64,000 nucleotides of DNA, taken from an uncultured Acidobacteriota bacterium. GTDB taxonomy: Bacteria; Acidobacteriota; Vicinamibacteria; Marinacidobacterales; SMYC01. Shown here piece by piece: positions 19,472 through 43,702 of this stretch; position 1 is the first letter of the stretch, and the number at the start of each line of letters is the position of its first letter. Below the pieces are notes generated by a model, which saw nothing but the letters and a program-made list of their open reading frames with translations, did no database searches and was not told the origin of the DNA. The position numbers and the translations under genes were made by a program. The stretch lies in the NCBI GenBank assembly GCA_963820855.1, contig CAWGBY010000021.1:5354-69353 (forward strand). The letters are read 5' to 3'.

Positions 19472-19485
19472 GCTAGCGCGATGTC

Positions 19486-19518
19486 GGGCGGGGCTCTCGC
19501 AGAAAGGGGGCCCCGCCC
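19486..19518 (+). terminator. GC-rich hairpin after the protease gene (candidate intrinsic terminator)
   Basis: GGGCGGGGC-14 nt-GCCCCGCCC, followed by TTACGGCTTTCCTTTTC. Lies 15 nt after the stop at 19471. Confidence 0.5.
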
Positions 19519-19541
19519 TTACGGCTTTCCTTTTCGGGTCG

Positions 19542-19939
19542 TTACCGCGGCATGTCCGGGCAGAGGTACGGCACCGGCGCGGGGCGATAGCGCTGCTCTT
19601 CTTGTCCGCTCGAAAGCTCGAGCCGCAACACCAGCTCGTCGACGCTGAGCGCCACGATCTCGGCCCGAATTTCGGAAGCGTCCTCTTGCCAGACCAGCGT
19701 ATGGTCCGAGTCCTTTCTCCAGCGGGAGAGGCGGTGGGTCTCCCAGCACGAGTCCATCACGAGCGTCCCGTCCGAGAGAAAGATGCGCAGGATACCGGGA
19801 AGCTCGGTCGAGTCCGATCGCGTCCACGCGCGGTCGACGAGGGCGCTTTCTCTTCCGTGGGAGCGGGGTCGACGACGGACTCGGGCCGGCATCCCGTGAG
19901 CGCGAGAGCGACCGCGGCGAAGTAAGCTCTGCTCCTCAT
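19542..19939 (-). CDS. small lipoprotein, hypothetical; one frameshift near 19850
   Basis: ATG 19939 gives MRSRAYFAAVALALTGC (lipobox). It continues in ORF 19542..19892 (ILRIFLSDGTLVMDSCWETHRLSRW...PYLCPDMPR). The start overlaps the upstream stop (ATGA). Confidence 0.5.
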
Positions 19940-20572: not shown

Positions 20573-20582
20573 CCGCGTTCTC

Positions 20583-23254: not shown

Positions 23255-24956
23255 ATGGTGAAGCGCTACTTCGTCTGCCCTGATTCGTCGCCGCCGCGCG
23301 AGTCCGCGTTTCGCCGATACCTATCCCCGCCAGCCGGGAGTGGACGCGCTTCACTATGCCTTCCGGCTCACCCTGAGCGACGACACCGACGAGATCGAAG
23401 GCGAGTCGGTGCTCGACGTGCGCTTTCTTCGTGAGGACGTTCCATCGATCGCTCTCGATCTGGTGAACGCGCGAGAGGGGAAGGGCATGACGGTCCGCGC
23501 GGTTCTTTGGGATGGCGTCCCTGCGGAATTCGAGCACCGCGACGATCGTTTGACCGTGACTCTGCCCCAAGCGCCTTCTGCCTCCGACCGGAGGCAGCTC
23601 ACCGTTCGGTACCGTGGGACGCCCGCCTCGGGGCTTCGCATCGGGCCGAACCTCCACGGGGATCGCACGTTCTTCAGCGACAACTGGCCGAATCGGGCGC
23701 GTCACTGGCTTCCGACCATCGATCACCCGTACGACCGGGCCACCTGCGAGCTCATCGTGACGGCGCCGTCCCACTATCAGGTGATCTCGAACGGACTTCT
23801 CGTGGAAGAAACGGACTTGCAATCCGGGGCGCGTCGCACCCACTGGAAGCAGTCGGTGCCCATCGCTACCTGGCTCTTCGTGCTCGGCGCGGCGCGCTTC
23901 GCCGTCGATCACTATGACCAGGTCGGAGGGCGATCCCTTCAATCCTGGGTCTATCCCCAGGACCGCGATCGCGGGTTCCGTGACTTCTCCTACCCCACCC
24001 GGCAGGCGCTCGAGTTCTTCAGCGAGAGCGATCGGGCCGTACGCGTACGAGAAGCTCGCGAACGTGCAGTCCGCGAGCATCGGCGGCGGAATGGAGGCGG
24101 CGACGGCGATCTTCTACGGGGAGGAACTGGTGAAGGGGGAGCGCGATTCCCGCCTTCGCGACATCATCATTCACGAGATCGCGCACCAGTGGTGGGGGAA
24201 CTCGGTGACGGAAGCCGACTGGAATGACGTCTGGCTCTCGGAGGGCTTCGCCACGTACTTCACGCTTCTCTTTCGCGAGCACGCGTACGGCCGCGACGAC
24301 TTCGCGCGGGGCCTCGAAGACGCTCGCCGTCAGGTGCTGGAGTTCCACGCGAAAGATCCGGAGTACCGCATCGTCCACGAGAACCTCGACGACATGTCGC
24401 GGGTGACGACGAGCCAGACCTATCAGAAAGGGCGCTTTCGTCCTCCACATGCTTCGCGGCGTCGTGGGCGACGAGGCTTTCTGGCGGGGAATTCGGTCGT
24501 ACTATGAGGAGTTCTCGACGAGGAACGCGACCACCCTCGATTTCCGGCGAGCGATGGAGGAGGCGTCGGGGCAGCGATCTCGCTCGGTTCTTCCGGCAGT
24601 GGCTCGAGCGCGGCGGGACTCCCGCGCGTCGAGGGGACCTGGCGAGTAGCAGGCTCCGCGCTCGAGGTCGATCTCCGTCAGACCCAGGCGGGAGAGCCGT
24701 TCGAGCTCGAGATTCCCGTCGTCATCGAGACTCGAGGGCGGCTCGCTCGCCGCGGGTCGAGAAATTACGGATGACGGAGCGAGAGGCGAAAGCGACCTTC
24801 CCGCTCGAAGGCACAATGCGGGCGGTCGCTCTCGACCCTGAGCTCTGGGTGCTGATGGAGTCGAGCATTCGTTCGAAAGTAGCACATACGCCGTCGCCGC
24901 CCCCTCGAGACGCTCCGCGGCTCTCGCGATGGACAGGCGAACTCAGAGCGTTTTGA
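23255..24956 (+). CDS. M1 family metallopeptidase (aminopeptidase N-like); 4-5 frameshifts
   Basis: [14 protein letters not shown].., [10 protein letters not shown] and WLSEGFATY motifs across ORFs 23340, 23914, 24449 and 24504. N-terminal start is uncertain. Confidence 0.85.
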
Positions 24957-26472
24957 GGAAGGCGATGAGCGCCCGTCGGTCCTCGACCGCGAGGTCGAGC
25001 CCGAACTCGTGCCCCGGGACGGCGCGCGCCTTGCCGTCCGCGCCGTTGAAGCCCGTCGGCACGTAGTCGTCCCTCAGGCGCCGCGGATCGAACCAGTCCT
25101 CGAGCGTGGCTACCGAGCCGTGGTGACCGAATGGACCGCGGTACCACAGGCCCTTGAGCGACGGGACCTTGTAGTAGCCGGTGCCCCTCCGCGACCTCAA
25201 CGTCAGGTCCGGGTCGGTGCCGACCGAGACCGGCATGATGTCGAACTTCGTTGGGTGGGCCGCCGGGACCTGGAAGCCCGCGGCGGGCGTCAGCATGTTG
25301 TTCGTGTAGAGCGGCGGCGCGTGGCACGCGGCGCATCCCTCGCGGTCGAAGACTTCCCGGCCGCGCGCCGCGAGCGCGTCGAACCGGTTCGGGTTCGCCG
25401 GCGGCTCGAGCGAGTAGATGAAGAGCGCGAGCGCGTAGAGCTGTTCGTCGCTGTACCGGTCGCCCTTCTCGGGGTCAGGAAGGTCGCCCACGGGCCGGAA
25501 GCCGTCGTACGTCGAGAGCATGTCGGCGCCCTGGTTGAGCGCGGCGTACCGCATCAGGTCGCCGACCGTGCGGTGCCGGACGAGGCCCGAAGCGTCGAGG
25601 TAGCGGCGGTCCCTGACGCCGATCAGATCGGGGATTCGCGCGGGGTAGTAGGCGCTCGACCCCTGTCGCGCGCACACGCCCGGCGGGATCGCCTCGAGCG
25701 CGGCGAGAATGTCGTCGAGCGACGCTCGCTCGGGGACGGCGTTCGGGTCCGGCCGCAGCCACGGCGCGGCGTAGAACCGCCGCATGGCGCTCCGCATCTC
25801 CTGAAGGACGGCGGCCTCGTCCTTCGCCCGCGCCGCGTCGAGCCGTGTCTCATAGGCGAAGCTGCGGTCGTCGGGGAAGTTCCCCTGCGCGCCTTTGATC
25901 GCCGCACCGTCCGGCATCACGCGCGTGTGGCACATCCCGCAGGCGCTGATCCCGATCTCGACTTTTCCGCGCTCCCGGACGACGTAGCGCATGAACGGGA
26001 AGACGCCCTCCTTCGTCAGCGGAATACGGAGCTTCTCGTACCACTCCCGCGACCGCACGACCGAGTAGAGGGTCCCCTCGGAAACGAACTCGATCGGCGC
26101 GTCGAAGACGACCTCGCCCGCCCGGATCCAGTCCTCCTCGGTCTTGAGGGCTGAGGCGTCGAAGGCGACCTCGGGCTCCTGATTCGCAAGTCCGTCCAGG
26201 TAGCCGGGCGGCTCCCGATCCGGATGATAGATCGGATAGCTCTCGTAGATAGGCCGCACGGGCATGCGGTAGTAGTACTCGGCGGAAACGTGGCGCGGGG
26301 ACGCGGACGCGACGGCGAGCGGGACCTCGAGGTCCCGCATCACCTCGTCTTCCCATGTCCTCGGAACGGACGGCAACCAGGCTTCGGGGCTCTGGGCGGC
26401 GCCGGCGAGGGTCGCCGCCGCCGCGAACGCAATGGCCGCGAGAATGGGCACCGTTCTTTCGCAAGGTCGCAT
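24943..26472 (-). CDS. di-haem cytochrome c peroxidase-family protein, secreted
   Basis: Intact. Starts MRPCERTVPILAAIAFAAAATLAGA (signal). Two CxxCH motifs (ACGMCH, CAACH). Confidence 0.85.
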   Translation of the reverse strand: MRPCERTVPILAAIAFAAAATLAGAAQSPEAWLPSVPRTWEDEVMRDLEVPLAVASASPRHVSAEYYYRMPVRPIYESYPIYHPDREPPGYLDGLANQEPEVAFDASALKTEEDWIRAGEVVFDAPIEFVSEGTLYSVVRSREWYEKLRIPLTKEGVFPFMRYVVRERGKVEIGISACGMCHTRVMPDGAAIKGAQGNFPDDRSFAYETRLDAARAKDEAAVLQEMRSAMRRFYAAPWLRPDPNAVPERASLDDILAALEAIPPGVCARQGSSAYYPARIPDLIGVRDRRYLDASGLVRHRTVGDLMRYAALNQGADMLSTYDGFRPVGDLPDPEKGDRYSDEQLYALALFIYSLEPPANPNRFDALAARGREVFDREGCAACHAPPLYTNNMLTPAAGFQVPAAHPTKFDIMPVSVGTDPDLTLRSRRGTGYYKVPSLKGLWYRGPFGHHGSVATLEDWFDPRRLRDDYVPTGFNGADGKARAVPGHEFGLDLAVEDRRALIAFLKTL

Positions 26473-26555
26473 TCGCGCCCTCCCTTCCGAGCCCGCGACG
26501 CTCGGCGATCCTATATCGAACGGGAAGGGACTGATATTCGGTCCAAAAGGAAAGC

Positions 26556-27006
26556 TCAGCCCGGGCATTCGGGGAAGACCCAGCTTCCCGAGGAGTCTTT
26601 CTCGACCGGGACGTGGGTCGATACGCAGCACGTATAGAGAGGGACGATCAAGTACTTCATCCCCAGGAGCTCGCTCGCCGGGCTCGTGGGACTCAAGACC
26701 GCGCGCTCCATTCGGCGGGTGTCGAGGTTCTTTTGAGCCTCCACCCAGACGTTCTTCGCTTCGTCGCACAGGGCTTTCATGTCTTCCCGGTCGTGCTGCG
26801 TCACGTAGTTGATCACCAGGTCGCGGTTCTCGTTCAGGTGCGTGCTGAGCACGGGAATCTCGAGCCCGGAAGGAAGCCGAAGAACGGGCTCACCCTCGAC
26901 CGGGCTGCACGACCGCTCTCCGCAGGCGCGGAACTCGCGGTATTGCCAAAGAAACCAGCCCGCCGCGGCCACTCCGATCGCAAGAAGCGCGAAGCCGAAG
27001 CTTCAT
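26556..27006 (-). CDS. membrane-anchored Cys-rich hypothetical protein; one frameshift near 26985
   Basis: ATG 27006 overlaps the upstream stop (ATGA). MKLRLRA then LLAIGVAAAGWFLWQYREFRACGERSC... (ORF 26556..26972). Eight Cys including a TCC pair. Confidence 0.5.
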
Positions 27007-28112
27007 CCCACGATCCTTCGATAACTCTCGGGGTCGGTCGCGCCTTCGGTGACCAGGACAAGTACGCGTCGCGTTCCGGTCGAGTCCGATATCGCCCCGG
27101 TCCGGCCGGGCGAGAAGGGCTTCGAGACCGGCGAGGGCCGCGGCTCCGGTCTCGCCCGATACGATCCCGGAGCGAGCGAGCGCGCGCATCGCTTCTTCCG
27201 CGAAGGAGTCGTCGATCGCGACGCACGCGTCGAGCCCCGCGAGGAGTGTGGGAAAAGCAATCGAGGACGGCGTGCCGCAATTGAGGCCGGCCATGATGGA
27301 ATCCTGTGGACCGGGAACGGTCACGAGCTTCCGCGCTTCGATGGACGCGAGAACGCAGGCGGCGCTCTTGGGCTCGACGCCGATGACCGAAGTGCCGCTG
27401 GTCCGCTTGTAGAAATCGACGGCGGCGGCGCCCAGAGCACCCACGCCGATGGGCACGAACGCTGCCGTGGGAGGCGAATCGATCTGCTCCGCGATCTCGC
27501 TGAAAGATCGTTCCGTAGCCCTGGATGACCCAGCGCGGGATTTCCTCGTAGCCCGGCCACGATGTGTCGTCCACGACGAGACACCGTTCGCTCATCTCCT
27601 CCGCGGAGCGGGCAATCGTCGCGTCATAGTCGCCGTCGACGACGGTTACGGTCGCTCCTTCGCTCTCGATCGCGCGGATGCGCGCCTCGGCCGTTCCCCG
27701 CGGAACGAAGATCCGCGCCTCGAAGCCGAGAACGCGCGCGAAATGGGCGACGGCACGGCCGTGGTTCCCATCCGTAGCCGCCGCGAGTGTGAAGGGATGG
27801 AGCACCTCGACCTCCCGCGCGAGGTCCTCGAGAGTCGACCAGCGGTCGAGGGCGAGACCGGACTTGTCGATGAGCGCGCGGTAGATCGCCCAGGACGCGC
27901 CCAGGAGCTTGAACGAAGGCAGACCGAAGCGGCTCGATTCGTTCTTCACCAAAACGCGCGCGACTCCGAGCCTCGAGGCGATAGCGTCGACCGAGACGAG
28001 TGGAGTGGGGGCGTACCTCGGAAGCTTGCGGTGAAACGGAGATCGGAGAAAGCGTATCCGACGCCAGCGGTGGGGGAGCTCCGGTCGAGCGATTGCGGAG
28101 ATACCTCGTCAT
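27003..28112 (-). CDS. dpaL: diaminopropionate ammonia-lyase (YgeX-like, PLP-dependent); about 3 frameshifts
   Basis: FHRKLPRYAPTPLVSVDAIASRLGVARVLVKNESSRFGLPSFKLLGASWA, TDGNHGRAVA (ORF 26834..27952). Then VPIGVGALGAAAV...MAGLNCGTPS (ORF 26890..27456). Tail VLVLVTEGATDPESY. ATG 28112 overlaps the upstream stop (ATGA). Confidence 0.85.
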
Positions 28113-29140
28113 CCGAGTCTCGCGAAGAGTCTCTTCTTCTGCTCGTCCGCGCGCCTCCGGATCTCCACGGGATCGACGCGCGTCGGTCGTCCGTCCTCGA
28201 GAACCGTCTCGCCCGCGACATCGACGCGAAGCGGCCGCACTCCGGGAGTGAACGCGAGATGCCAGGGCTCCATCGGGTCGTAGGACCAGGTGACGCGGTC
28301 CTCGCGCGCTTCGGGGAAGAGATCCCACCCCGCCTCGAGCCACTTCCACGCGGCCTCTGGAGACGCGGCGGAGTCCGCCTCTCGATGGCGCAGATACGCC
28401 ATGCGAAAGATCTCGATCATGTCGGCGCCGATTCCATCCGAGCCGAGCACGATGCGGTTTGGCTTCGACGCGGGGAACGCGTAGCCCACGGAGTTGTTCA
28501 TGTTCGAGAGCGGGTTGTGGGCGATCGTTCCCGGAAGCTCGCCGATCGAGGTGCACCGCGTGGGCGAGGAGCCAGCCGTCGCGCGCGCGGCCCTCGAGGC
28601 GCTTTCCCGATTCGATGTCCTCGGGGCCCTCGGCGACGTGGATGTGGACTCCGGCGTCGAGATCGGAGGCGAGCGACGCAGACCCTGTCGAGGGTATCGT
28701 CGGAAAGCGTGAAACAGGCGTGGGCCCCGACGATATCGCGGCCCTTTCCATCGAAGGTCTTCAGGTGCCGCTCGTTCTCCGCGAGCCCGGCCTTCGCTCC
28801 GTCGAGCCCGTGGCGGTCGGTCACTTCGTAGCAGGTCGCGACTCGCACGCCGACTTCGCGGCAGGCGCTCGGCGATGACCGCGAGCGACCCCTCGATGGC
28901 ATTCGGGGAGGCGTGGTGGTCGATGATGGCCGTGGTGCCGCGTTCGAGGGCCTCGAGGGCGCCGAGCTTGGCCGACCAGCGGATCATCTCGAGGTCGAGG
29001 GCCTGGTCGAGTCGCCACCAGATGAGCTCGAGGATCTCCCGAAAACTATGCGGAGCCCGTGGAGGCGCGGGCATACCCCTCGCCAGTGCGGAATACAGAT
29101 GGTGATGCGCGCAGACGAGACCGGGGGTGGTCGCTGACAT
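28109..29140 (-). CDS. SsnA-like/chlorohydrolase-type aminohydrolase lacking the usual N-terminal beta-sandwich segment; about 3 frameshifts
   Basis: MSATTPGLVCAHHHLYSALARGMP (HxH metal motif). Middle pieces in ORFs 28498..28902 and 27624..28751 (VGAHACFT, GVHIHVAEG). C-terminus NPLSNMNNSVGY, LGSDGIG. Confidence 0.8.
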   Translation of the reverse strand: MSATTPGLVCAHHHLYSALARGMPAPPRAPHSFREILELIWWRLDQALDLEMIRWSAKLGALEALERGTTAIIDHHASPNAIEGSLAVIAERLPRSRRASRDLLRSDRPPRARRSEGRARGERAAPEDLRWKGPRYRRGPRLFHAFRRYPRQGLRRSPPISTPESTSTSPRAPRTSNRESASRAARATAGSSPTRCTSIGELPGTIAHNPLSNMNNSVGYAFPASKPNRIVLGSDGIGADMIEIFRMAYLRHREADSAASPEAAWKWLEAGWDLFPEAREDRVTWSYDPMEPWHLAFTPGVRPLRVDVAGETVLEDGRPTRVDPVEIRRRADEQKKRLFARLG

Positions 29141-29149
29141 CGAACCCTC

Positions 29150-29165
29150 TAATGATAATGATAGT
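29150..29165. promoter_or_regulatory. AT-rich hexamer repeat (Fur-box-like) directly upstream of the SsnA-like gene RBS
   Basis: TAATGATAATGATAGT in a GC-rich context. 13 of 17 positions match the TAATGATAATCATTATC part of the classical Fur box by eye. Confidence 0.25.
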
Positions 29166-29344
29166 GGAGAACGTCGGCGGGGCTTACAATTTCGAGGAAT
29201 CTTTCCAACTCCTTTCGTCTATGTCATTTGGCTCCCGGCGACCCGGATTCCTGTGTCGAGCGTTCTGACACCCGCGACGATTCGGGCGTTTCCCTGGATT
29301 CGACAAACAGCCTGTCCACATACCTTTAGTGCGAGGTGCCAGAA

Positions 29345-29360
29345 TGGCCCGGCCTTTGCA
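29345..29360 (+). promoter_or_regulatory. candidate sigma54 (-24/-12) promoter
   Basis: TGGCCC-GGCCT-TTGCA matches TGGCAC-N5-TTGCW with exact GG/GC spacing. Lies about 60 nt upstream of ATG 29421. Confidence 0.45.
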
Positions 29361-29420
29361 ATCCCGTTGAGCTCACGTCGTCTGCGAGATTGGGAATGGC
29401 GCACCTCGTTCAGGACCGTG

Positions 29421-30313
29421 ATGAGATCGGGAAACCTCGCGCGGAGGACCGTCGTCCTCGTGGAGGCGCCGAGCTCTCCGTCCCTTCGAATCCGGCAGAT
29501 TGCCACGGAAGGCGGCTTCCGCGTCGTCTCCGCGATCTCAGGGCCGATGCTGCAGTCTTACGCCCGAAGGAACGCGCCGGACCTGATCCTCCTGGCTCCC
29601 GAGACCGGACCACCCGGACCGGCGGAGATCGCCCGCTCCATCAAGGAAGACCCGGAGACGCGCGAGATACCCGTGTTTCAGCTGATGCGCTCGAGCCGGT
29701 TCGGCGTGGAAAACGCCCGCCACACGTACCCGACCGAGGCGCTCCTCTCGGACGACGCTCCGGCCGATGAAATTCTGCGCACCATGCGGATGCTCACGAC
29801 CCGAGCGCCGCGAATTCGCTACGAAAAGAAGACGGCGTCCCAGCTCGAAGGAGACCTCGAGAGCGACACCTTTCCCGAGGTGCTGCAGTTTCTCTTCGCG
29901 ACCGCGAAGACCGGCCGCATCACGCTCCACGCCGGATCGCGAGAAGGGATGATTTGCCTCGAGTCGGGCCGCGTGGTGCACGCGGAGCTCGGCGAGCTGG
30001 AAGGCCTCGCCGCCTTCCGGCGCATGTGCTTCTCCCAGCAAGGCTGGTTTCGATTCGACCCGGGGACGCCCGGCCCCCGCCGCACGATGCGAGCCGACGG
30101 GATCGCGCTCCTCCTGGAATCCGCGCGGCAGAAAGACCTCGGGGATCGCGACAAGACTCCCTTCCCCGTGAAGAAACCCAGGACTTCCTCGACCGAGCTC
30201 TTCATCGTCGCGCGAGAGCGACGGCTGACTCGCGAGCCTCTCAGCTCGGCCCCGCCGGCATCGCAATTCTGGTCGGACTCCTCCTGCTCGTCGCCTACGG
30301 GCTCCTGCCCTAG
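29421..30313 (+). CDS. receiver-like domain + DUF4388/PATAN domain protein with C-terminal TM helix; one frameshift near 30240
   Basis: RRTVVLVEAP...PDLILLAPE (receiver fold, Ala where the phospho-acceptor Asp is expected). LEGDLESDTFPEVLQFLFATAKTGRITL..GMICLESGRVVHAELG..GLAAFRRM (DUF4388). Tail GIAILVGLLLLVAYGLLP from ORF 29954..30313. Confidence 0.7.
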
Positions 30314-33300
30314 CGCTTTCGCCGCATCGGAAGCTCGCTCCGCCAGACACCGTCCAGGTCGTGGAGCGCCGCCGCCACCGCGCCGGCCGTTGGGACGAGT
30401 CCAATCTCGCCGACGCCTTTGATCCCGTAGGGCGCGTTCGGCTGAGGGCTCTCGACGAGAATCACGTCGAGCTCCGGCATCTCCGCGGGCTTCAGGATCC
30501 CGAGGCTCTTCAAAGTCAGGTGGGTCGGACGGCCGTTCGCGTCGGCGGGGAAGTCCTCGCTGAGGGCGAAGCCGAGGCCCATGTGCACGGCGCCTTCCAC
30601 TTGCCCCTCGCACAGGAGCGGGTTCACGGCGCGTCCCACGTCGTGCGCGGCGACGACCTTCTCGATCTTTCCGCTGGCGCGGTCCACTACCACGAGCTGC
30701 GCCGCGTATCCGAACGTCGAGTGGATGACGGGATTCTCGACGCCCTCATAGAGCGAATTCGTCCAGTCGACCCGGTACTCACCCGGATAATCGACTCCGG
30801 GACGGCGGCCGTCCGCATCGGCCGCCTTGCACGCGGCGAGGACCGAGCCCGCGGTCATGAGCGTCGCGCGGGAGCCCGTGGTCTGGCCGGCGCCGAGCTC
30901 TCTCGTCGTGTCGACTTTCACGGTGACACGGCTGGGATCGATTCCGAGCTCCTCGACCGCGACCTGAAGAGCCACGGTGTGGACTCCCTGGCCCATCTCG
31001 GTCCAGCAGTGCCGGACCTCGATGCCCCCGTCCTCCGCGAAGCGAACGATCGCTTTCGCGACTTCCTTGAATCCGTTGCCGAGTCCCGAATTCTTGAGGC
31101 CGAGAGCGACCCCGACCGCTTTCCCGGCGGCGACGGAATCGTCGTACGCGGTCTTTACCGCATCGAGGCAGCGGAGGGCGCCGAGACATCCGTCGTCCAT
31201 GATCTGTCCCGGTCCCCAGACCGCGCCAGGCGCGATCACGTTTCGCCGCCGCATCTCGTATCCGTCGAGGCCGGCCTTCTCCGCGAGCCGATCGAGAACG
31301 CCGTCCATCGCGAAGTGCGCCTGGTTCGCGCCGAATCCGCGGAAAGCGCCGGCGATGGGATTATTGGTGCGCGCGGCCACGGCCTCGACGTCGACCGCCG
31401 GCACGTGGAAGGGTCCGGTCGCGTGCCCCGCGGCTCGCTCCAGGACTTTCATTCCGACGGAAGCGTAGGCGCCCGAGTCGCCCACCATCCGCGCTTTCAC
31501 CGCGGTGAGCTTTCCCTCCGCGTCGCAGCCCGCCCAGTACTCCATCCGGATCGGGTGCCGTTTGGGATGCATGAAGAACGACTCTTCGCGGGAGAGCGTG
31601 CACTTCACCGGCTTTCGCAGGAGAAACGCCGCGAGCGCGGTCTGCGCCTGGTTCGATAGGTCTTCTTTCCCGCCGAAGGCGCCGCCGTTCGACACCAGCT
31701 CCGCTTCGATTCGGTCGGGAGCGACACCGAGCACCGCCGCGGTCTGGTTGCGATCGTCCCAGATCCCCTGTCCCCCCGAGTAGAGCTTGAGGCGCCCGTC
31801 GGGAAGCGGCACCGCGAGCGTCGACTCTGGCTCGAGAAACGCGTGGTCGACGCGCTGCGTCTGGAAGACCTCGTGCACCCGATGGGCGGACGAAGCGAGC
31901 GCGGCCTCGACGTCTCCGCGGCGATACTTCGAACGGGAGAGAACGTTGTCTTTCGTTCCCCAGACCGCGATCTCGGCATCCTCGATCGCCGCGAGAGGGT
32001 CGGTGATTGGACGAAGCACCCGGTAGTCGACGTCCACGAGAGCGGCCGCGCGGCGCGCCGTCTCGCGATCGCGCGCGACCACGATGGCGAGAACGTCCCC
32101 GAGGTAGCTCGTGAGACCGCCCTCCGGAATGAAAACCGGCCAGTCCTTGTGGATGAGCCCGACGCGGAGCTCGCCGGGAACGTCTTTCGCGGTGAAGATG
32201 CCATCGACGCCTTCTTCACGCGAGGCCCGCGTCGTATCGATCCGGACGATTTCCGCCCGCGCATGGTCCGTGAGCCGCAGCGCTCCATGGAGCATTCCCG
32301 GGACGCGCATGTCGTCGATGTAGGGCCTCCGGCCAACCGCGAGATCGCACCCCTCGTACTTGATGCCGGAGCTTCCGATGCCTCGAGGGAGCTCGATCGC
32401 GACTTCGCCGCCCTGGGCCAGGAGCTCGACCGCGTCCAGAATCTTCACGTAGCCGGTGCAGCGGCAGAGGTGCGTTCCGAGAAAGCGCGCCGCCTCGTCC
32501 CGCGAAAGACTCGACCCCCTCGAATCGACGAGCGCTTTGGTGCGCATCACGATTCCCGGCGTGCAGAAGCCGCACTGAAGGGCGCCCTTCGAGGCGAAGG
32601 CGCGGGCGTAGCGCTCGAGCTCCTCCGGATCGATTCCTTCGAGAGTTTCGACGCTCTTTCCCGCGGTGGCCGCGAGCGATTGGGTGCAGCTCGTGACGGC
32701 TCTTCCCTCGACCAGCACCGTGCAGCAGCCGCACTGACCCGACGGCGAGCAGCCGTCTTTCGGAGAGATGACGCCCAGCTCTTCGCGAAGCGCGGAAAGG
32801 AGATGAGGGTGGCTTCCCTCGATTTCCACCTTCTCACCGTTCAGCGTGAAGACGGTCACAGCGGAGCCCTCCTTGGGCGGCACCGCGCCCCGGCGCTCGG
32901 TGATGAGCTTGTACTGGTCGGGCCTCCGGTAGCGGTCGAAATCGAAGAGCGTCTCCTTGTAGCTCCTGCACAGATCGAGGTCGCAGTCCGCGACCGCGAG
33001 CTCGTCTCCGTTCGTGTGGCACCGCGCGGCGATGACCCCCGAGGGAGCGATGATCGCGCTCTGCGCGAGGGAATCGACGCCCTCTTCGATTCCGCCCTTC
33101 GCCACTCCCACAACCCAGGTCCCGTTCTGATAGGCGCCGGCCTGCATCACCAGATGGTTGTGAAACCCGGCGAGCACGTCCTGGCTCGGATCCGGCGCGT
33201 AGTGAATGGGCGTGTTGTAGCCGATGAGAATCATTTCGACGCCCTGGAGCCCGAGCACCCGATAGGTCTCGGGCCAGCGGCGGTCGTTGCAGATCGCCAT

Positions 33301-33795
33301 CCCGACGACCCCACCGAACGCGCGCCACACGGGGAAGCCGTCGCTTCCCGGCTCGAAATAGCGGCGCTCGAGGTGCTGGAATCGCCGCCACGGCTCGTGC
33401 TCCTCGTGTCCGGGAAGGTGGACCTTTCGATATTTCCCGACGACGCGCCCGTCGCGCTCGACGAGAATCTGCGTGTTGTAGTGATGCCCGTCGGGGGTCA
33501 GCTCCGCGTAGCCGAGGCAGAAGCCGATGCCGAGCCGTTTCGCCTCGTCGAAGAGAGGCTTCGTATCCCGTCCCGGCATCTCACGCTCGAAGAACGAGTC
33601 GATCTCGCGCGGGTCCTCGATGTACCAGCGGGGGAAGAACGTGGTGAGAGCGAGCTCGGGGAATACGACGAGCTCGCAGCCACGCTCGTTCGCGCTTCGC
33701 AGGAGCGCGAGGAGCCTCTCGACGACCTGCGCCCGCGTCTCGCTCCTCGCCACGGGACCGAGCTGCGCGGCTCCCGCCGTGACCACCCGGCTCAT
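30310..33795 (-). CDS. single ORF encoding N-carbamoyl-amino-acid amidohydrolase (CN-hydrolase) joined in frame to an XdhD-like 2Fe-2S + molybdopterin hydroxylase
   Basis: ATG 33795 (ATGA overlap with the M20 stop) gives MSRVVTAGAAQLG..VVFPELALT..KYRKVHLPG..MAICNDRRWPE (Glu-Lys-Cys triad). Junction is ..DQYKLITERRGAVPPKEGSA-VTVFTLNGEKV. Then CSPSGQCGCC and CGFCTPG (2Fe-2S), hammerhead and MoCo-binding domains, GVGEIG. No frameshift in 3.5 kb. The Arg-rich 5' part of ORF 30310..34953 is spurious. Confidence 0.85.
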   Translation of the reverse strand: MSRVVTAGAAQLGPVARSETRAQVVERLLALLRSANERGCELVVFPELALTTFFPRWYIEDPREIDSFFEREMPGRDTKPLFDEAKRLGIGFCLGYAELTPDGHHYNTQILVERDGRVVGKYRKVHLPGHEEHEPWRRFQHLERRYFEPGSDGFPVWRAFGGVVGMAICNDRRWPETYRVLGLQGVEMILIGYNTPIHYAPDPSQDVLAGFHNHLVMQAGAYQNGTWVVGVAKGGIEEGVDSLAQSAIIAPSGVIAARCHTNGDELAVADCDLDLCRSYKETLFDFDRYRRPDQYKLITERRGAVPPKEGSAVTVFTLNGEKVEIEGSHPHLLSALREELGVISPKDGCSPSGQCGCCTVLVEGRAVTSCTQSLAATAGKSVETLEGIDPEELERYARAFASKGALQCGFCTPGIVMRTKALVDSRGSSLSRDEAARFLGTHLCRCTGYVKILDAVELLAQGGEVAIELPRGIGSSGIKYEGCDLAVGRRPYIDDMRVPGMLHGALRLTDHARAEIVRIDTTRASREEGVDGIFTAKDVPGELRVGLIHKDWPVFIPEGGLTSYLGDVLAIVVARDRETARRAAALVDVDYRVLRPITDPLAAIEDAEIAVWGTKDNVLSRSKYRRGDVEAALASSAHRVHEVFQTQRVDHAFLEPESTLAVPLPDGRLKLYSGGQGIWDDRNQTAAVLGVAPDRIEAELVSNGGAFGGKEDLSNQAQTALAAFLLRKPVKCTLSREESFFMHPKRHPIRMEYWAGCDAEGKLTAVKARMVGDSGAYASVGMKVLERAAGHATGPFHVPAVDVEAVAARTNNPIAGAFRGFGANQAHFAMDGVLDRLAEKAGLDGYEMRRRNVIAPGAVWGPGQIMDDGCLGALRCLDAVKTAYDDSVAAGKAVGVALGLKNSGLGNGFKEVAKAIVRFAEDGGIEVRHCWTEMGQGVHTVALQVAVEELGIDPSRVTVKVDTTRELGAGQTTGSRATLMTAGSVLAACKAADADGRRPGVDYPGEYRVDWTNSLYEGVENPVIHSTFGYAAQLVVVDRASGKIEKVVAAHDVGRAVNPLLCEGQVEGAVHMGLGFALSEDFPADANGRPTHLTLKSLGILKPAEMPELDVILVESPQPNAPYGIKGVGEIGLVPTAGAVAAALHDLDGVWRSELPMRRKR

Positions 33796-35042
33796 GAGGA
33801 AACCGCGTCGGTCTCGGTCAGTGTGAGGACGGTCTCGAGGAGGACGTTCGCCCCGAGCTCCAGGTCCGCGGGGTCGGTGTGCTCTTTCGGGTTGTGGCTC
33901 AGCCCCTTCACGCTGGGCGTGAAGATCATCCCCGACGGGCAGACGCGCGCGAGCATTTGGGCGTCGTGTCCGGCTCCCGCGGGGAGGCGCTTGACCGTCG
34001 CTCCGAGTGACGAGGCGGTCTCCTCGACGAGCGAGATCATTCTCGGATCGAAATCGACGGGCTCGAAGCGCGCGAGTCTTCGGGTCGAGATTTCGACGCC
34101 CTCGTCGTCCCCCGTCCGCCCGAGGAAATCGTCGAGCCTCGCTTCCGCCGACTGCAGGAGCTTCTCGTCGGTATTGCGGAGGTCCACCGTGAAGACCGCC
34201 TTGTTCGCGACGACGTTCACCAGGTTGGGCTCGAGCGTGAGGTAGCCGACCGTGCCGACCTGCGCGCCTTTCATCTCTCTCGTCAGTTGCCGCACGAACG
34301 CCGCCGTCGCCCCCGCCACGTACCCGGCGTCGTGCCGGTACGACATCGGCGTCGTGCCCGCGTGGTTCGACTGACCGCGCACGGTGACTTCCGTCCAGGA
34401 GATTCCCTGGACTCCGGTGACGGCGCCGATGCGGAAGCCCTCGGCCTCGAGGACCGGACCCTGCTCGATGTGAAGCTCGACGTAGGCGTACGGCACCGGG
34501 CCGGGGACCGGGGCCTCGCCTCGATAGCCAATGCGTGAAAGCTCGTCTCCGACCCGCTTTCCGTCGATGGTGACGGCGTCGTGAGCCTCCTCGAGCCCGA
34601 AGCCGCCGACGTACACCAGGCTCCCCATCATGTCGGGGGCGACGCGGCTGCCTTCCTCGTTCGAGAAGAAGGCCACGGCGAGCGGCCGCCGGGTCGTGAC
34701 ACCCGCGTCTTTCAGCGTTTCGACGACCTCGAGACCGGAGAGGACTCCGTAGTTTCCATCGTACCGCCCGCCGGTCCGGACGGTATCGATGTGAGAGCCG
34801 ACCATGACCGGAGGACCGTTCTCGAGGCCGGGACGGAAAGCGACGCCGTTTCCGATGGCGTCGATCGTGACCTTCATCCCGAGCTCGCGCATCCATCGGG
34901 TGACCAGATCGCGGCCCTCTTTGTCGGCGTCGGTGAAGGCGAGCCGGTTGCATCCGCCGTCGTCCCGCGCCCCGCGGGTCGCGAGCTCGGAAAGGCGACC
35001 GAGGAGCCTCTTGCCGTCGACGCGCAGTGATTTCTTCGTCAT
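33792..35042 (-). CDS. M20 family Zn-dependent amidohydrolase (allantoate amidohydrolase / N-carbamoyl-L-amino-acid hydrolase type)
   Basis: MTKKSLRVDGKRLLGRLSELA..GGCNRLAFTD..GSHIDTV..GRYDGNYGV..FSNEEG..SNHAGTTPM..GAGHDAQ. Intact. Confidence 0.9.
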   Translation of the reverse strand: MTKKSLRVDGKRLLGRLSELATRGARDDGGCNRLAFTDADKEGRDLVTRWMRELGMKVTIDAIGNGVAFRPGLENGPPVMVGSHIDTVRTGGRYDGNYGVLSGLEVVETLKDAGVTTRRPLAVAFFSNEEGSRVAPDMMGSLVYVGGFGLEEAHDAVTIDGKRVGDELSRIGYRGEAPVPGPVPYAYVELHIEQGPVLEAEGFRIGAVTGVQGISWTEVTVRGQSNHAGTTPMSYRHDAGYVAGATAAFVRQLTREMKGAQVGTVGYLTLEPNLVNVVANKAVFTVDLRNTDEKLLQSAEARLDDFLGRTGDDEGVEISTRRLARFEPVDFDPRMISLVEETASSLGATVKRLPAGAGHDAQMLARVCPSGMIFTPSVKGLSHNPKEHTDPADLELGANVLLETVLTLTETDAVSS

Positions 35043-35088
35043 CGGGAAATGCCCCCGGGCCTCAAAGGTTATGATAGCCTTTTTTCCC

Positions 35089-35961
35089 ATGGCCAGAATC
35101 GTCAAGGGCGGTCTCATCCAGTGCGCGAACCCCGTGAACGACGAGAGCCGTTCGGTTCGGGAGATCCAGGCAGCGGCGCTCGAAAAGCACCTGCCGTTCG
35201 TCGATCGGGCGGGTCAGGAGAAGGTGCAGCTCCTGTGTCTCCAGGAGATCTTCAACGGGCCTTACTTCTGCCCGTCGCAGGACGCGCGGTGGTACGACGC
35301 GGCGGAGCCCGTGCCGGGACCGACCGTCGAGGCTCTCGTTCCCTATGCGCGGAAGTACCAGATGGTCGTCGTCGTTCCTGTCTACGAGAGGGAGCAGGCG
35401 GGCGTCTACTACAACACCGCCGCCGTCCTCGACGCCGATGGGAAGTACCTCGGCAAGTACCGCAAGAACCATCTCCCGCACACGTCGGGCTTCTGGGAGA
35501 AGTATTTCTTCAAGCCGGGAAACCTCGGCTACCCCGTGTTCCAGACCGCCTACGCGACCGTCGGGGTCTACATCTGCTACGACCGCCACTTTCCGGAAGG
35601 CGCCCGGCTTCTGGGATTGAAAGGCGCGGAGATCGTCTTCAATCCTTCGGCCACGGTCGCCGGGCTCTCGCAGTATCTCTGGAAGCTCGAGCAGCCGGCC
35701 CACGCCGTCGCGAACGGCTACTTCATGGGCTGCCTCAACCGGGTGGGGGAAGAGGCCCCGTGGCGTATCGGAAAATTCTACGGGCACAGCTACTTCGTCG
35801 ATCCGCGGGGGAAGTTCCTCGCGGAGGGAAGCGAAGACCGGGACGAGCTCGTCACCGCGGAGATGGATCTCGACCTCATCGAGGAAGTCCGGCGCGTCTG
35901 GCAGTTCTACCGCGATCGCAGGCCCGAGACCTACGGAGAAATGACGGCCCTTCTTCCTTGA
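35089..35961 (+). CDS. beta-ureidopropionase-type CN-hydrolase (nitrilase superfamily)
   Basis: MARIVKGGLIQC..LLCLQEIF..KYRKNHLP..VYICYDRHFPE..NPSAT. Intact. Divergent from the M20 gene with a 46-bp spacer. Confidence 0.9.
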   Translation: MARIVKGGLIQCANPVNDESRSVREIQAAALEKHLPFVDRAGQEKVQLLCLQEIFNGPYFCPSQDARWYDAAEPVPGPTVEALVPYARKYQMVVVVPVYEREQAGVYYNTAAVLDADGKYLGKYRKNHLPHTSGFWEKYFFKPGNLGYPVFQTAYATVGVYICYDRHFPEGARLLGLKGAEIVFNPSATVAGLSQYLWKLEQPAHAVANGYFMGCLNRVGEEAPWRIGKFYGHSYFVDPRGKFLAEGSEDRDELVTAEMDLDLIEEVRRVWQFYRDRRPETYGEMTALLP

Positions 35962-35980
35962 GGCCGCCGGGAGGCACGAC

Positions 35981-36478
35981 ATGTCTTTGACCGATGCACA
36001 AGCTCACGCGGAGCGGGAATCTCTCGTCGAGCGCTACATCCGCAAGCCCGCCTACACCGGGTTCGAGAGCGAGGCCGCGGGGGTCAACCACCTCGCGTTC
36101 ATCAGCACCGATCTCGACAAGACCATCGAGTTCTACACCCAGGTCATCCGGCTCAAGATGCTGCGGGTGAGGGCGCATGACGAAGACCCGCGATCGACCC
36201 AGGTGTTCTTCGACATGGGACGAGGGGAGCTTCTCGCGTTTCTCCGCGTGAACGACATGAAGGAGAAAGCGCGCCTCGGACTCGGCGGATTCCACCACGC
36301 CGCGCTCACGGTGACCCGCGAGCAATACGAGGCGGCGAAAAAGCGCCTCGACGAGAGGGGAATCAAGTACAGCACGATCTCGCACGAGATCCTGGACACC
36401 ATCACCCTCACCGACCCGAACGGGATCACGCTCGAGCTCTCGGTCTGGAACGTCGACCCGAAAGACGTCCAGATGTGA
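35981..36478 (+). CDS. VOC (glyoxalase/bleomycin-resistance/dioxygenase) family protein
   Basis: GVNHLAFISTDLDKTIEFY..GGFHHAALTV..ITLELS. Intact 165 aa. Confidence 0.85.
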   Translation: MSLTDAQAHAERESLVERYIRKPAYTGFESEAAGVNHLAFISTDLDKTIEFYTQVIRLKMLRVRAHDEDPRSTQVFFDMGRGELLAFLRVNDMKEKARLGLGGFHHAALTVTREQYEAAKKRLDERGIKYSTISHEILDTITLTDPNGITLELSVWNVDPKDVQM

Positions 36479-37938
36479 CAACGGGACTCTCGGGCCCCGT
36501 CGTTCTCGTCTCCTATCTCGTTCTGGTCCTCGCCATCGGGTGGCTCTCGTCCCGCGGGCAGGGAACCCCCGAGGATTTCTGGGTCGCGGGACGTAGCTTT
36601 GGAGTGCCGCTTCTGGTGGCGGCGAACGTCGGCTCCATCCTGCACGGGGGAGCGATTCTGAGCCACGTCGGATTCGCCGCCCACGTCGGGGGAGTGGCCG
36701 TGACCACGAACCTGTCGTACGCGCTCGGGTTCGCGGTGATGTTCTTTTTCTTCGCGGCGAAGCTCCGCCGCTCGCGCGGGTTCACCCTTCCCGACTTCAT
36801 GGGCGACCGGTTCGATTCGCGCCTGCTCCGAGGCTGGACCGCTCTCGTGGTCGCGGTGACGAGCATCCTCTATCTCGTCGCGCAGATCCGCGCGATGGGC
36901 TTCGTGATGGAGCGTCTTCTCGGGCTCGAGTTCTGGGTGGGCCAGCTCGTCGGCACGGCGATCTTCGTCGCGTACGTCGCTCTCGGAGGCCTGAGCGCCG
37001 TCGTCTGGACCAACGTCCTCCAGATAGCCCTGATGTGGATCGGACTCCTGGTCCTGGCGCCTTCCGTGTATCGCGCGATCGGTGGGTTTCGCGAGCGTCA
37101 TGGACGCGAGCGGAAGCGGTGGCTCCCGGCTGGACCTCTCCTTCCGGAGTGCAGTGGTCGACGGGATATCTCATCTCCTGGTACCTCCTCGTCTTCATCG
37201 CCTACAGCACGAGGCTCGAGCTCCTGACGAAGGTGTTCGCCGCCCGCGACGAGGCCGTCGCGCGCCGCGCCATTCCGTGGACCGCGGTCATCGTGATCGC
37301 CTTTCTCGTCTTCGGCGGGACTCTATCTGGCCGCCGCCGCGCGCGTGCTGGTATGGGACTCGATCGCGTCGCCGGACGAGGCCTTTCCGGCGATGATCGC
37401 GATGCTCCTCGGACCGCTCGGCGACGTCGCTCGCGCTCACCGGCGTCGCCTGCGCCATCATGTCCACGACCGACTCCCTTCTTCTGATGACCGGATCGGC
37501 GGTGGCGCACGATTTCCTGAGAAGGTGCGTTCACGAGCCGAGAGGAACGAAGAGGAGCGAGGCCTACTATCTCAGGGTCTCGCGGCTGACGGTCGTGATG
37601 GTGGGCGCCCTGAGCTTTCTCCTCGCGCTTCCTGACGTCGCCCTCATTCTCGAGCTCGTGGCCTACGCGCTCGCGATCGTGGGGTCGAGTTTCTTCTTCC
37701 CGCTGCTCGCGGGGCTCTGGTCGCCGCGCGTGAGCCGCGAAGCGGCGACGATCGCCTCGATCGCGGGCGGCCTCATTGCGGCGTTCTGCACGGTGTTCGC
37801 GATCCGGGAGGCGCCCTGGGCGCTCCAGGTGCACCCGGTCGTTCCCGGGCTCGCTCGTGTCCGGCGATGCTCATCGTGGTCGTGACTCTCTTCACCCGCC
37901 CGGTCCGCGACGAGGCGGTGCGGCTCTACTTCACCTGA
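36475..37938 (+). CDS. sodium:solute symporter (SSS) family transporter; about 5 frameshifts
   Basis: GTG 36475 overlaps the VOC stop (GTGA). EDFWVAGRSFG, TLPDFMGDRF, multiple TM segments across ORFs 36475, 37035, 37345 and 37460. Ends ..VRLYFT*. Confidence 0.8.
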
Positions 37939-37957
37939 ATTCCAAGGAGTGAACTCC

Positions 37958-39276
37958 ATGTCGCGTCGGTCCTTCCTGAAATCGGTCGGCCTCCTCGGAG
38001 GCGCCAGCTTCACCGGACGCCGGGAATCGCAGGCCGGCGGGCTTTCTCTCGGCGATATCGACGTCATCGACGTGCACGTCCATCCGCCGCAGCCGATGAC
38101 GCTTCGGCAGTCGTACGACGGCTGGAACTCGTCTTTCGTCGACGCGCTCTTGCCCGCCTTCGACTATCCGCAGAAAGAAGAGCTGCGGGAGAAGCTCGGA
38201 GGCGTCTTCAAGGGGCACCTCTACCGCATGCCGCGGCAGATCGGCTACTACAACTACATGGCGAGGGTGTACGGCGTCGAGCCGACGCTCGAGGGTTTCG
38301 ACTCCGTCCTCGAGAAGAAGCTCAAGGGCGACTTCAGCGAGTACATCTCCTCGATCCTCGACCGGGAGAGGATCCCGGCCGTCGTCCTTCAGTCGCGCTC
38401 CTCCGATCCGGTTCGGCCGGAGAGCGCGATTCCCCGGCACCGCTTCGTCTGGACGTACTCCGTCGGCGATCTGATCCAGCCGACCTGGCCGCAGGCGCAG
38501 GAAGCGCGCGAGCTCGGGGAAGTGCTCGAGCGGGTCGACTTCGATTCTGAAGCGCGCCGCCGAGAACGATTGCCGCGGAATCAAGATTCCGATCGCCTAC
38601 TACCGGCCCATCGTCATCGAAGCGGTCGAGAAAGACGAGGCCGAGCGACGCGCTCTGAAGACTTTTCGCGACCTCCCACCCTCCGGGCAGCGCGCGTTTC
38701 CCGGCCCGATTCCTCTCTACGACGACCCCGCCGTCACGAGGGCGGTCCACCGGTATCAGGACTACCTCCTCAAGCACATGTACGTTCGGGCGGGAGAGCT
38801 CGGCCTCAAGGTCATCATCCATACGGCCGTCGGGCTCCATCCCGGGACTTCGCTTCGACTACAACAGCCCGGTCGACATGTACCACACCTTCCAGAACGA
38901 CGACGTGAAGCGGGCCTATACCGAGTTCGTGCTGATTCACACCGGTTATCCCTACCATCACCACGTGGCCGCGCTCCTGAGCCAGTTCCCGAACGTCTAC
39001 ACCGACGTCTCGTTCTACGCGAAGTTCCCGGGGACGCTCGAGGAGACGATGAAGGCGTTTCTCTCGCTCGCCCCGTCCGAGAAGGTGATGCACGGGAGCG
39101 ACTCGAACAACGTGCCGGAGGAGATCGGCTACTGCGCCGACAACAGCCGCCGGGTGCTCGGGAAGCTTCTGAACGAGTTCCAGAGCTACTACGGCTGGAC
39201 GGAGAAGGACTGCCGCATCGCCGCCGAGAACGTGCTCAGCGGGAACGCGCGAAGGATCTATCGAATCCCCGCTTAG
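37958..39276 (+). CDS. Tat-exported amidohydrolase (amidohydrolase_2/TIM-barrel type); 2-3 frameshifts
   Basis: AAGGAG then ATG 37958. MSRRSFLKSVGLLGG (twin-Arg). IDVIDVHVH. Continues through ORFs 38778 and 38878 (IIHTAVG, VLIHTGYPY, HGSDSN). Confidence 0.8.
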
Positions 39277-41193: not shown

Positions 41194-41283
41194 GGACCTC
41201 CCTCGGTTTGTGAAGCGACGCGATGATAGCCGCCCTCCCGCGTTTTGCAATAGCCGGAGGAGAAAACCGTAGAATGATCCGTC

Positions 41284-42061
41284 GTGAGAATCGTCTTTCT
41301 CATCGTCGACGGCTTGAACCTCATTCGCCGCGTGTATGCGGCGACGCCGGAAGCCGAGGGCTCCCTTCATTTCGATGCCGCCCTCGCCGCGACCGTGCAG
41401 TCCTTGCGCCGAGCCCTCCTCGAGGCTTCACCGACGCATGCGGTCGTCGTCTTCGACGGAGCAGGAGCCGACTTTCCGCCACGAGCTCTACCCGGAGTAC
41501 AAGGCCGGAAGAAAGCCGATGCCCGAGGAGCTGCGCCTCGGGCTCGATCGCTACCCGGAGGCGTTCTCGAAGCTCGGAGTGTCCTCCGTGAGCAAGCCCG
41601 GAGTGGAGGCGGATGACGTCGTCGCGACGCTCGCGTCCGGAGTGGCGGTCCATGACGGCGACGTCGTCATCCTCTCGACCGATACCGCCTTCTGCCAGCT
41701 CATCTCGGAGCGCGTCACGGTTCGCGATCACTTCCAGAAGCGGCCTCTCGACGCACGCTACGTTCGGGAGAAGTTCGACGTCGGACCCGAGGAGCTCATC
41801 GACTTGTGGGCCCTCGCGGGCAGCAGCACGACTCACATCCCGGGTGTGCCCGGCGTGGGAGCCAAGACCGCGGCGCGGCTTCTCGGGGAGCACAAAACGC
41901 TCGAACGAGTGCTCGAATCCGCCTCCGGGATGAAGGGTAAGCTCGGCGAAGCGCTGCGGACGCACGCGGATCTCGCGCGATTGTCGCAGAAGCTCGCCCG
42001 GCTGCGAGTGGACCTGGACCTCGGCTGGAACCTGAAGTCGTTTCGCTACCGGGCGCTCTAG
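41284..42061 (+). CDS. xni: flap endonuclease Xni / 5'-3' exonuclease family; one frameshift near 41465
   Basis: VRIVFLIVDGLNLIRRVYAA, FRHELYPEYKAGRKPMPEEL, EADDVVATLA, LWALAGSSTTHIPGVPGVGAKTAARLL. Confidence 0.85.
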
Positions 42062-43689: not shown

Positions 43690-43702
43690 GCTCGGTTCCG
43701 GA

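Follow-up and report, generated by a model that had tools for sequence, protein, structure and literature searches.

A probable variant of the reductive urate pathway, hydrolytic and without YgfK, in an uncultured soil acidobacterium

We analyzed a 64,000-nucleotide stretch of DNA (contig CAWGBY010000021.1, positions 5,354 to 69,353; hereafter the window) from a soil acidobacterium of the class Vicinamibacteria, focusing on a catabolic gene cluster at window positions 26556-37950 and on functionally related genes elsewhere in the window. The original prediction, made from the sequence alone, had described within 10 kb a diaminopropionate ammonia-lyase (DAPAL), an SsnA-like aminohydrolase, an Fe-S/molybdopterin hydroxylase (XDH), an M20 amidohydrolase, two CN-hydrolases (CN1 and CN2), and a VOC protein, and had compared them with the ygeW-...-xdhD neighbourhood of E. 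coli. Profile searches recovered this entire gene set (Table 1), and the family assignments together with the conserved neighbourhood indicate that it is functionally analogous to the E. coli genes. The predicted ATGA overlaps between the SsnA and DAPAL genes and between the M20 and CN1 genes were evident from the coordinates, and the DAPAL reading ends at 27006. The hydantoinase, adenosine deaminase, and nucleosidase reported elsewhere in the window were also confirmed by profile searches. As the window has a GC content of 65%, plain lists of open reading frames (ORFs) are rich in spurious frames; the gene layout was obtained by profile searches and codon log-likelihood segmentation, and GC3 filtering alone failed at this GC content.

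The pathway of the E. coli neighbourhood had been regarded in the original prediction as not worked out, which is outdated: it was solved in 2025 as a reductive urate, or 2,8-dioxopurine, pathway (PMC12507026; PMC12990295; bioRxiv 10.1101/2025.04.24.650524). According to these reports, XdhD-YgfM or XdhAC reduces urate to 2,8-dioxopurine, YgfK or UacX dearomatizes the product, and SsnA opens the ring to form ureidomethyl-hydantoin; HyuA then yields 2,3-diureidopropionate, from which the ureido groups are taken off by YgeY together with YgeW (or UacY), and YgeX produces pyruvate. They described the pathway as a trait of gut anaerobes, tied to a selenium cofactor and to ATP gain via carbamate kinase. 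Our results suggest that the region analyzed here is probably the central block of this pathway in a hydrolytic variant without YgfK, the parts of which lie in three places of the window.

Table 1. Features of the window, with the region of the main block first, the separately located candidates next, and other genes last.
Feature	Position	Strand	Family match and remarks
Cys-rich membrane-anchored protein	26556-27006	-	Probably coupled to DAPAL in translation; 75% identity to G002; found only in G001, G002, and G003 (genus-only)
Diaminopropionate ammonia-lyase (DAPAL, YgeX/DpaL)	27003-28112	-	NF006058; three +1 insertions
Short SsnA-type aminohydrolase	28109-29140	-	343 codons; lacks the N-terminal ~50 residues of E. 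coli SsnA
DUF4388 (PATAN) protein with C-terminal membrane helix	29396-30313	+	PF14332, E 1.8e-15; between the XDH and SsnA genes
Fe-S and molybdopterin hydroxylase without FAD domain (XDH)	30310-32859	-	TIGR03311 (XdhAC) type
CN1, N-carbamoyl-D-amino-acid hydrolase	32860-33795	-	PDB 8i99/6lcg match; no stop codon in the assembly
M20 amidohydrolase, allantoate-amidohydrolase/L-carbamoylase type	33792-35117	-	PF01546
CN2, beta-ureidopropionase/N-carbamoylputrescine amidase-like CN-hydrolase	35071-35961	+	PF00795, E 4e-64
VOC/glyoxalase-fold protein	35981-36478	+	PF00903, E 4e-13; neighbour conserved only in G002
Sodium:solute symporter (SSF) family transporter	36475-37950	+	PF00474; four frame pieces; conserved only in G002
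Luciferase-like (Mer/F420-type LLM) oxidoreductase	13508-14488	-	PF00296; fragmented by frame shifts
CysK-like pyridoxal phosphate (PLP) enzyme, ~456 aa	14508-15879	-	PF00291; directly upstream of LLM
D-hydantoinase/dihydropyrimidinase	8776-10139	-	TIGR02033, 571.7 bits (cut-off 393)
Deiodinase-like gene	8099-8752	-	PF00837; split by an in-frame stop at 8493-8495
Adenosine deaminase	43700-44671		Profile search
PNP_UDP nucleosidase	49340-50005		Profile search
Polytopic membrane protein, 524 aa	47769-49340	-	Between padR/FtsX-like genes and the nucleosidase; no Pfam or NCBIfam match

Several window genes are damaged by frame changes, and their family scores were taken from intact orthologues, with G002, a Microflora Danica metagenome-assembled genome (MAG; isolate MFD10007), serving as the same-genus genome. 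The Microflora Danica project reportedly used long-read sequencing, and the genome analyzed here may stem from it as well. Intact DAPAL orthologues scored 328.6 (G002) and 343.2 bits on NF006058 (cut-off 276), and the protein showed 36% identity to E. coli YgeX. The YgeX-like family was thus confirmed, but the gene itself is broken by three frame changes, placed near 28040, 27500, and 27066 by tblastn and at insertions 28037, 27501, and 27067 by comparison with three relatives. Intact orthologues of the SsnA-type protein gave 252-256 bits on NF005540 (cut-off 444), with the next family at 69 bits. They belong to a short subclade of about 341 residues that begins just before the HxH motif, and the identity to E. 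coli SsnA was 35-37%. In the phylogenetic tree, this short clade grouped with E. coli SsnA (support 100/98), apart from guanine-deaminase-type amidohydrolases, in agreement with the predicted SsnA-like identity. In the window copy, four +1 insertions (28867, 28733, 28677, and 28541) shift the middle third (~28870-28540) into another frame. An amidohydrolase on contig C2 of the same genome was considered as the true SsnA and rejected, with 132 bits against E. coli SsnA compared with ~171 bits for the cluster SsnA, and with AGS in place of the HxH metal motif. Upstream of the SsnA gene, an AT-rich element, CCACTATCATTATCATTA (window 29150-29167), forms an 18-nt insertion that was absent from all three relatives compared.

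The molybdenum hydroxylase had been called XdhD-like, which our searches did not bear out. The protein (~850 residues) matched TIGR03311 over its full length with 793.8 bits, just under the cut-off of 830.45 (794-813 bits including orthologues), whereas the XdhD model TIGR03313 gave only 169-199 bits (cut-off 1101.9). Identity to E. coli XdhD was 24.5%, and the best match of the genome to XdhD/XdhA was found on contig C11, outside the window. To judge from these scores, XDH belongs with TIGR03311 (XdhAC/Se-XDH type) and lies outside the XdhD clade. It is 89% identical to its G002 orthologue, and the closest solved structure is the aldehyde oxidoreductase of D. gigas, which likewise has an architecture without a flavin adenine dinucleotide (FAD) domain. 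In an alignment with rat xanthine oxidoreductase, the equivalents of the purine-type residues E802, R880, F914, and E1261 were kept, and Thr stands in the place of A1078, a change that is among the two given by Liu et al. for 2,8-dioxopurine dehydrogenase (DOPDH). At the position of F1009 an Asn was found, where the alignment is uncertain. A cytochrome c gene nearby (24943-26769) was considered as an electron partner and rejected, as it is not conserved beside the cluster in relatives.

The hydrolases of the window could be assigned to distinct families. CN1 aligned end to end with crystallized D-carbamoylases (366-426 bits), the best match being 426 bits (E 5e-127) over residues 1-303 against 1-305 of PDB 8i99/6lcg; to judge from this alignment, it is a D-carbamoylase, that is, a textbook N-carbamoyl-D-amino-acid hydrolase. 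The predicted M20 amidohydrolase is present, but it is of the AllC/hydantoinase-carbamoylase type and not YgeY: its G002 orthologue scored 453.9 bits on NF006769 (cut-off 452) and 376.6 bits on TIGR01879 (cut-off 204), and BLASTP against E. coli YgeY gave no match. Its true start is probably MTKKSL at ~35042. For CN2, the best PDB matches were the beta-ureidopropionases 2vhh/6ftq (189 bits), and the gene is kept in seven relatives of the family with 78-95% identity. The hydantoinase, located 17 kb from the core, is the best match of the genome to E. coli HyuA (44% identity).

An additional candidate, which the original prediction had overlooked, is a luciferase-like oxidoreductase (LLM) encoded 11 kb from the core. 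For Chloroflexota, Li et al. (2025, PMC12507026) had reported, on the basis of a similarity network alone, that the neighbour of SsnA is a putative luciferase-family enzyme dependent on F420 rather than YgfK. In locus L037, an LLM gene comes directly after SsnA, and the window LLM is the only close match of the genome to its product (50% identity; next 34%). The best NCBIfam matches of the L037 LLM were F420-dependent families, all below their cut-offs. Among 62 SsnA loci with enough downstream sequence, the gene 3' of SsnA was an LLM in 22 and a YgfK/GltD-like gene in 21, and both occurred together in none. In this genome, neither YgfK (TIGR03315) nor PreT/PreA was found. These results suggest that LLM is likely a non-homologous replacement of YgfK. 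In locus L085, a short SsnA gene stands beside a bona fide YgfK gene (931.5 bits, cut-off 835.3), which is followed by a YgeW-type carbamoyltransferase gene (383 bits, cut-off 453; 48% identity to E. coli YgeW). This arrangement, together with the mutual exclusivity of LLM and YgfK, connects the short SsnA with the pathway as published. The same locus, from a Thermoanaerobaculia MAG, contains a second ORF (14788-16848) after the full-length YgfK gene, which matches only the N-terminal 400 YgfK residues.

The CysK-like PLP enzyme encoded next to LLM shows 54-70% identity to its orthologue in G009, and orthologues with 38-45% identity were found in at least 25 SsnA loci across phyla. In G003, G004, and G009, a distance of 4-8 kb separates the PLP-LLM pair from the cluster. 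The PLP enzyme also co-occurs with DAPAL in this window. With regard to the LLM cofactor, cofD (TIGR01819) was not found in this genome, in G001-G004 or G006-G011, or in any cluster-bearing relative searched; it was present only in five of 19 relatives, namely G005 (same family), G019, G021, G023, and G025. Because the lineage lacks cofD, F420 dependence of the window LLM is doubtful.

The cluster is conserved in at least nine related Vicinamibacteria genomes, labelled by NCBI as Acidobacteriota, Vicinamibacteria, 'Ca. Marinacidobacterales', and hundreds of genomes from other phyla share its core. The CN2, M20-CN1-XDH, and SsnA-DAPAL units are kept in G002, G003, G004, G009, G013, G016, G018, and others, so that the co-localization extends over same-genus and same-family genomes. 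A scan for short SsnA genes yielded at least 578 related loci, of which the best 80 were analyzed; these came from Acidimicrobiia and other Actinomycetota, Chloroflexia, Acidobacteriota, Armatimonadota, and a few Pseudomonadota MAGs. An XDH orthologue was present in 58 of these 80 loci and stood directly upstream of SsnA in 47, while LLM was found in 31, CN1 in 21, DAPAL in 14, and M20 in 11. In particular, L037 contains XDH-SsnA-LLM-CN1-M20-hydantoinase-DAPAL within 11 kb; the window M20 and hydantoinase are 64% and 44% identical, respectively, to their counterparts in this compact cluster. A cultured strain, Aciditerrimonas ferrireducens JCM 15389, has XDH-SsnA-LLM (locus L050). In a sister genus (G004; locus L013, 14605-17203), genes for PreT- and PreA-type dihydropyrimidine-dehydrogenase subunits lie directly after CN2. 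These subunits could serve the pathway as a ring reductase of a third type or belong to a pyrimidine route linked to it.

The original prediction had also considered a selenium connection and had reported no FAD subunit, carbamate kinase, or YqeB/YqeC marker in the window. The first three are indeed not present there, and a yqeC-like gene was found on another contig. For the selenium link itself, selD (G000:C12:16373-17281; 270 bits, cut-off 125) and the yqeC-like gene (TIGR03172; G000:C2:23042-23674; 160.5 bits, cut-off 73), which lies beside mocA/xdhC-like genes, speak in its favour, whereas yqeB (TIGR03309) gave no match in any of the 19 genomes searched. With E. coli YqeB as the query, only its XdhC-like N-terminal half matched, to an XdhC-family gene on C2. 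The yqeC-like gene occurs in 12 of the 19 genomes, some of them without XDH. The selenium-cofactor trait is incomplete in this lineage. The surrounding region on C2 (G000:C2:19689-25206) resembles E. coli yqeB-yqeC-mocA...ssnA, with a 392-aa SsnA-like amidohydrolase (HxH replaced by AGS) and YqeC-like and MocA/XdhC-like genes, and hpt and a purine nucleoside phosphorylase gene are located a few kb beyond it. OHCU decarboxylase and the XdhA-type FeS/FAD small subunit were absent from all 19 genomes, which suggests that the lineage is without the classical oxidative route. The best match of the genome to YgeW showed only 26% identity and lies outside the window, and no carbamate kinase gene was found in the window.

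From the family assignments, synteny, and co-occurrence across genomes, which were observed directly, we infer all of the enzymatic steps that follow. XDH would remove the 6-oxo group of urate to give 2,8-dioxopurine, and LLM, in the place of YgfK, would reduce the ring. The short SsnA may then open the pyrimidine ring of dihydro-2,8-dioxopurine to form ureidomethyl-hydantoin, and the D-hydantoinase would open the hydantoin to 2,3-diureidopropionate. The ureido groups would be removed by hydrolysis, with CN1 as the candidate for the 2-ureido group and M20, as a stand-in for YgeY, and/or CN2 for the 3-ureido group. Finally, DAPAL would release pyruvate and ammonia. Each step has one candidate, which is the best or only match of the genome. 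Since hydrolysis would take the place of the E. coli YgeW carbamoyltransferase and carbamate kinase, the variant would gain no ATP at ureido removal.

The proposed pathway shares its logic and end-point with the reductive urate clusters of E. coli, C. sporogenes, and C. difficile, with homologues of SsnA, HyuA, and YgeX at the identities given above. The XdhAC of C. sporogenes and C. difficile is, as here, an Fe-S/molybdenum cofactor (MoCo) hydroxylase without FAD, and UacY of C. difficile cleaves ureido groups by hydrolysis, the mode that we propose here. In contrast to the E. coli and clostridial clusters, the window contains an LLM candidate instead of YgfK/UacX, CN1 instead of YgeW, carbamate kinase, or UacY, an M20 of the AllC type instead of YgeY, an extra beta-ureidopropionase-like CN2, and an SsnA without the N-terminal ~50 residues; yqeB is absent, the genes occupy three places within 27 kb, and the host is an environmental acidobacterium. 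The full-length match to TIGR03311, 'selenium-dependent xanthine dehydrogenase' of the Enterococcus faecalis type, reflects the same Fe-S and MoCo architecture, again with yqeB absent here. In the Chloroflexota SsnA-LLM clusters (PMC12507026), a PF00296 protein is paired with SsnA where YgfK/UacX would be expected, and the same pairing was found here in Acidimicrobiia/Actinomycetota loci (22 loci); in the window, unlike in those clusters, LLM lies 11 kb from the core and not beside SsnA, in a lineage without cofD. Acidobacteriota are not listed in that study (PMC12507026), nor does it describe a replacement by D-carbamoylase. Both enzyme types of the D-hydantoinase/D-carbamoylase systems (Agrobacterium; Nitratireductor DCase) occur in this window, but here they are embedded with SsnA, DAPAL, and a Mo hydroxylase, a context that favours an endogenous diureido compound over 5-substituted hydantoins as the substrate.

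The quality of the assembly affects how these genes can be read. The genome assembly comprises 8.26 Mb in 31 contigs with a completeness of just 74.5%, and segmentation revealed about 40 sites in the window at which the reading of a gene passes into another frame. Housekeeping genes such as clpB are also hit, and the original prediction had missed that the breaks are insertions of an assembly type. In nucleotide alignments with three relatives, each break examined corresponded to a single extra base in the window (28867, 28733, 28677, 28541, 28037, 27501, 27067, 27001, 29441, and about 30215-30226). The DUF4388 protein, which is 82% identical to that of G002, is affected by two frame changes, with its N- and C-termini in another frame. 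The breaks come in blocks of 3-7 kb (window 26500-30320, 13400-20600, and 36475-41400), with one +1 insertion per 300-500 nt, alternating with clean stretches (30.3-36.5 kb and 44.7-47.3 kb); the breaks examined lie outside homopolymers and often adjoin CG. Quadruplet decoding and programmed +1 frameshifting were rejected as explanations, since the breaks are single extra bases, seven examined sites lacked a common four-base motif, and the inserted base fell at varying codon positions. The frame breaks in DAPAL, SsnA, DUF4388, and SSF are most likely +1 insertion errors of the assembly. Apparent fusions and pseudogenes of this assembly are not trustworthy without the reads.

This bears on the single carbamoylase-XdhD ORF of the original prediction. 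In this assembly, CN1 and XDH do form one open ORF of 1161 codons, with a complete D-carbamoylase in frame with XDH, but in all 22 other loci the two are adjacent yet separate genes that do not share a frame and that overlap by ATGA or GTGA. The XDH gene has its own start, GTG at 32859-32857, with the Shine-Dalgarno sequence AAGGAGG in front, and the junction retains both AAGGAGG and GTGA; within the 25 nt preceding GTGA, exactly one base is present that G003 lacks. Because the genes are separate in every other locus, and because a single extra base is the signature of the errors in this assembly, we consider the apparent fusion to be probably an artefact. A genuine species-specific fusion, giving a bifunctional 1161-aa D-carbamoylase/Mo-hydroxylase, would imply that DAPAL and SsnA are real pseudogenes and that the pathway is decaying; this is possible but the less likely explanation. 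The uninterrupted frame, the 6 kb around the junction (30.3-36.5 kb) without further frame errors, which means that the extra base could be genuine, and the varying length of the CN1-XDH linker region among relatives are consistent with it. In addition to the arrangement in the other loci and the retained start signals, however, the +1 insertion is the same type of change that breaks about 40 places of the window, including clpB, and the low completeness despite few contigs and a large assembly also argues against a genuine fusion.

Regarding the substrate, several points weigh against a reductive urate pathway. The choice of urate over another purine or N-heterocycle comes from homology and synteny and so should be regarded as provisional. 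LLM and the hydantoinase are located 11-17 kb from the core, a loose linkage, and the scores of SsnA and XDH are below the curated NCBIfam cut-offs. Three decarbamoylase candidates are available for two ureido groups. The characterized XdhAC needs the selenium cofactor trait, yet yqeB is absent here, and the families closest to LLM are F420-dependent, yet cofD is missing. Moreover, CN2 and the hydantoinase could belong to pyrimidine catabolism, given the PreT/PreA genes beside CN2 in G004. Extended to the whole cluster, this would mean a system for utilization of hydantoins/dihydropyrimidines or N-carbamoyl-D-amino acids, with the Mo enzyme acting on an N-heterocycle other than urate, which we regard as unlikely. 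The equivalog-level dihydropyrimidinase match of the hydantoinase, the resemblance of CN2 to beta-ureidopropionase, the classic D-carbamoylase type of CN1, and the PreT/PreA-type genes and NCS1 permease near clusters of relatives would fit such a system, but it leaves unexplained the conserved SsnA and DAPAL, the XDH-SsnA adjacency, the short SsnA beside YgfK and a YgeW-type gene in other lineages, and L037 with all seven functions together, and this genome lacks PreT/PreA. Alternatively, the Mo enzyme might work oxidatively in a probably aerobic host, hydroxylating 2,8-dioxopurine or another environmental oxopurine, with the downstream enzymes degrading a different ring-opened intermediate, so that the published route would apply only partly. 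Acidimicrobiia and Vicinamibacteria, both among the carriers, are mostly aerobes; the XdhAC of C. sporogenes works in both directions, no FAD subunit or known electron donor was found, and the lineage lacks yqeB and ygfK. A diaminopropionate end-point requires net reduction of the purine, however, 43 of 62 loci have a gene for a reductase-type partner (LLM or YgfK) after SsnA, and OHCU decarboxylase, an enzyme of the oxidative route, is missing, which makes oxidative use quite unlikely. The hydrolytic reductive urate variant thus remains our preferred interpretation.

Among the other genes of the window, the SSF family transporter is a possible system for substrate uptake, and the DUF4388 protein is a possible regulator. 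A Pfam search with the Cys-rich membrane-anchored protein gave no match. The gene originally predicted as an AGZA purine permease encodes the polytopic membrane protein of Table 1, which had no match in Pfam or NCBIfam and no similarity to E. coli GhxQ, and that assignment is unsupported. About 3 kb past the right end of the window (G000:C21:72390-73635), we found a gene for an NCS1 nucleobase/hydantoin permease that is 82% identical to one located 2 kb from the G003 cluster. In the deiodinase-like gene, the in-frame stop presumably encodes selenocysteine.

Taken together with the several hundred loci related to it, this cluster suggests that the pathway has a form that is widespread in the environment and in which yqeB is absent. 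Three of the seven steps would be carried out by unrelated enzymes, namely LLM for YgfK, a D-carbamoylase for YgeW/YqeA, and an AllC-type M20 for YgeY. More speculatively, reductive urate catabolism might extend beyond anaerobes with the selenium trait, with a fully hydrolytic version lacking YqeB and YgfK in soil Acidobacteriota, Acidimicrobiia, and Chloroflexia; in this tentative scheme, a Mer-like LLM might dearomatize 2,8-dioxopurine, in Vicinamibacteria without F420 and with another hydride donor, a D-carbamoylase might stand in for the carbamoyltransferase and kinase, and the 456-aa PLP enzyme might add a step absent from the published pathway. The cofactor of LLM in hosts that do not make F420 becomes a question of its own, and the findings provide candidate enzymes, open to testing, for an alternative reduction of 2,8-dioxopurine and for the hydrolysis of diureidopropionate.

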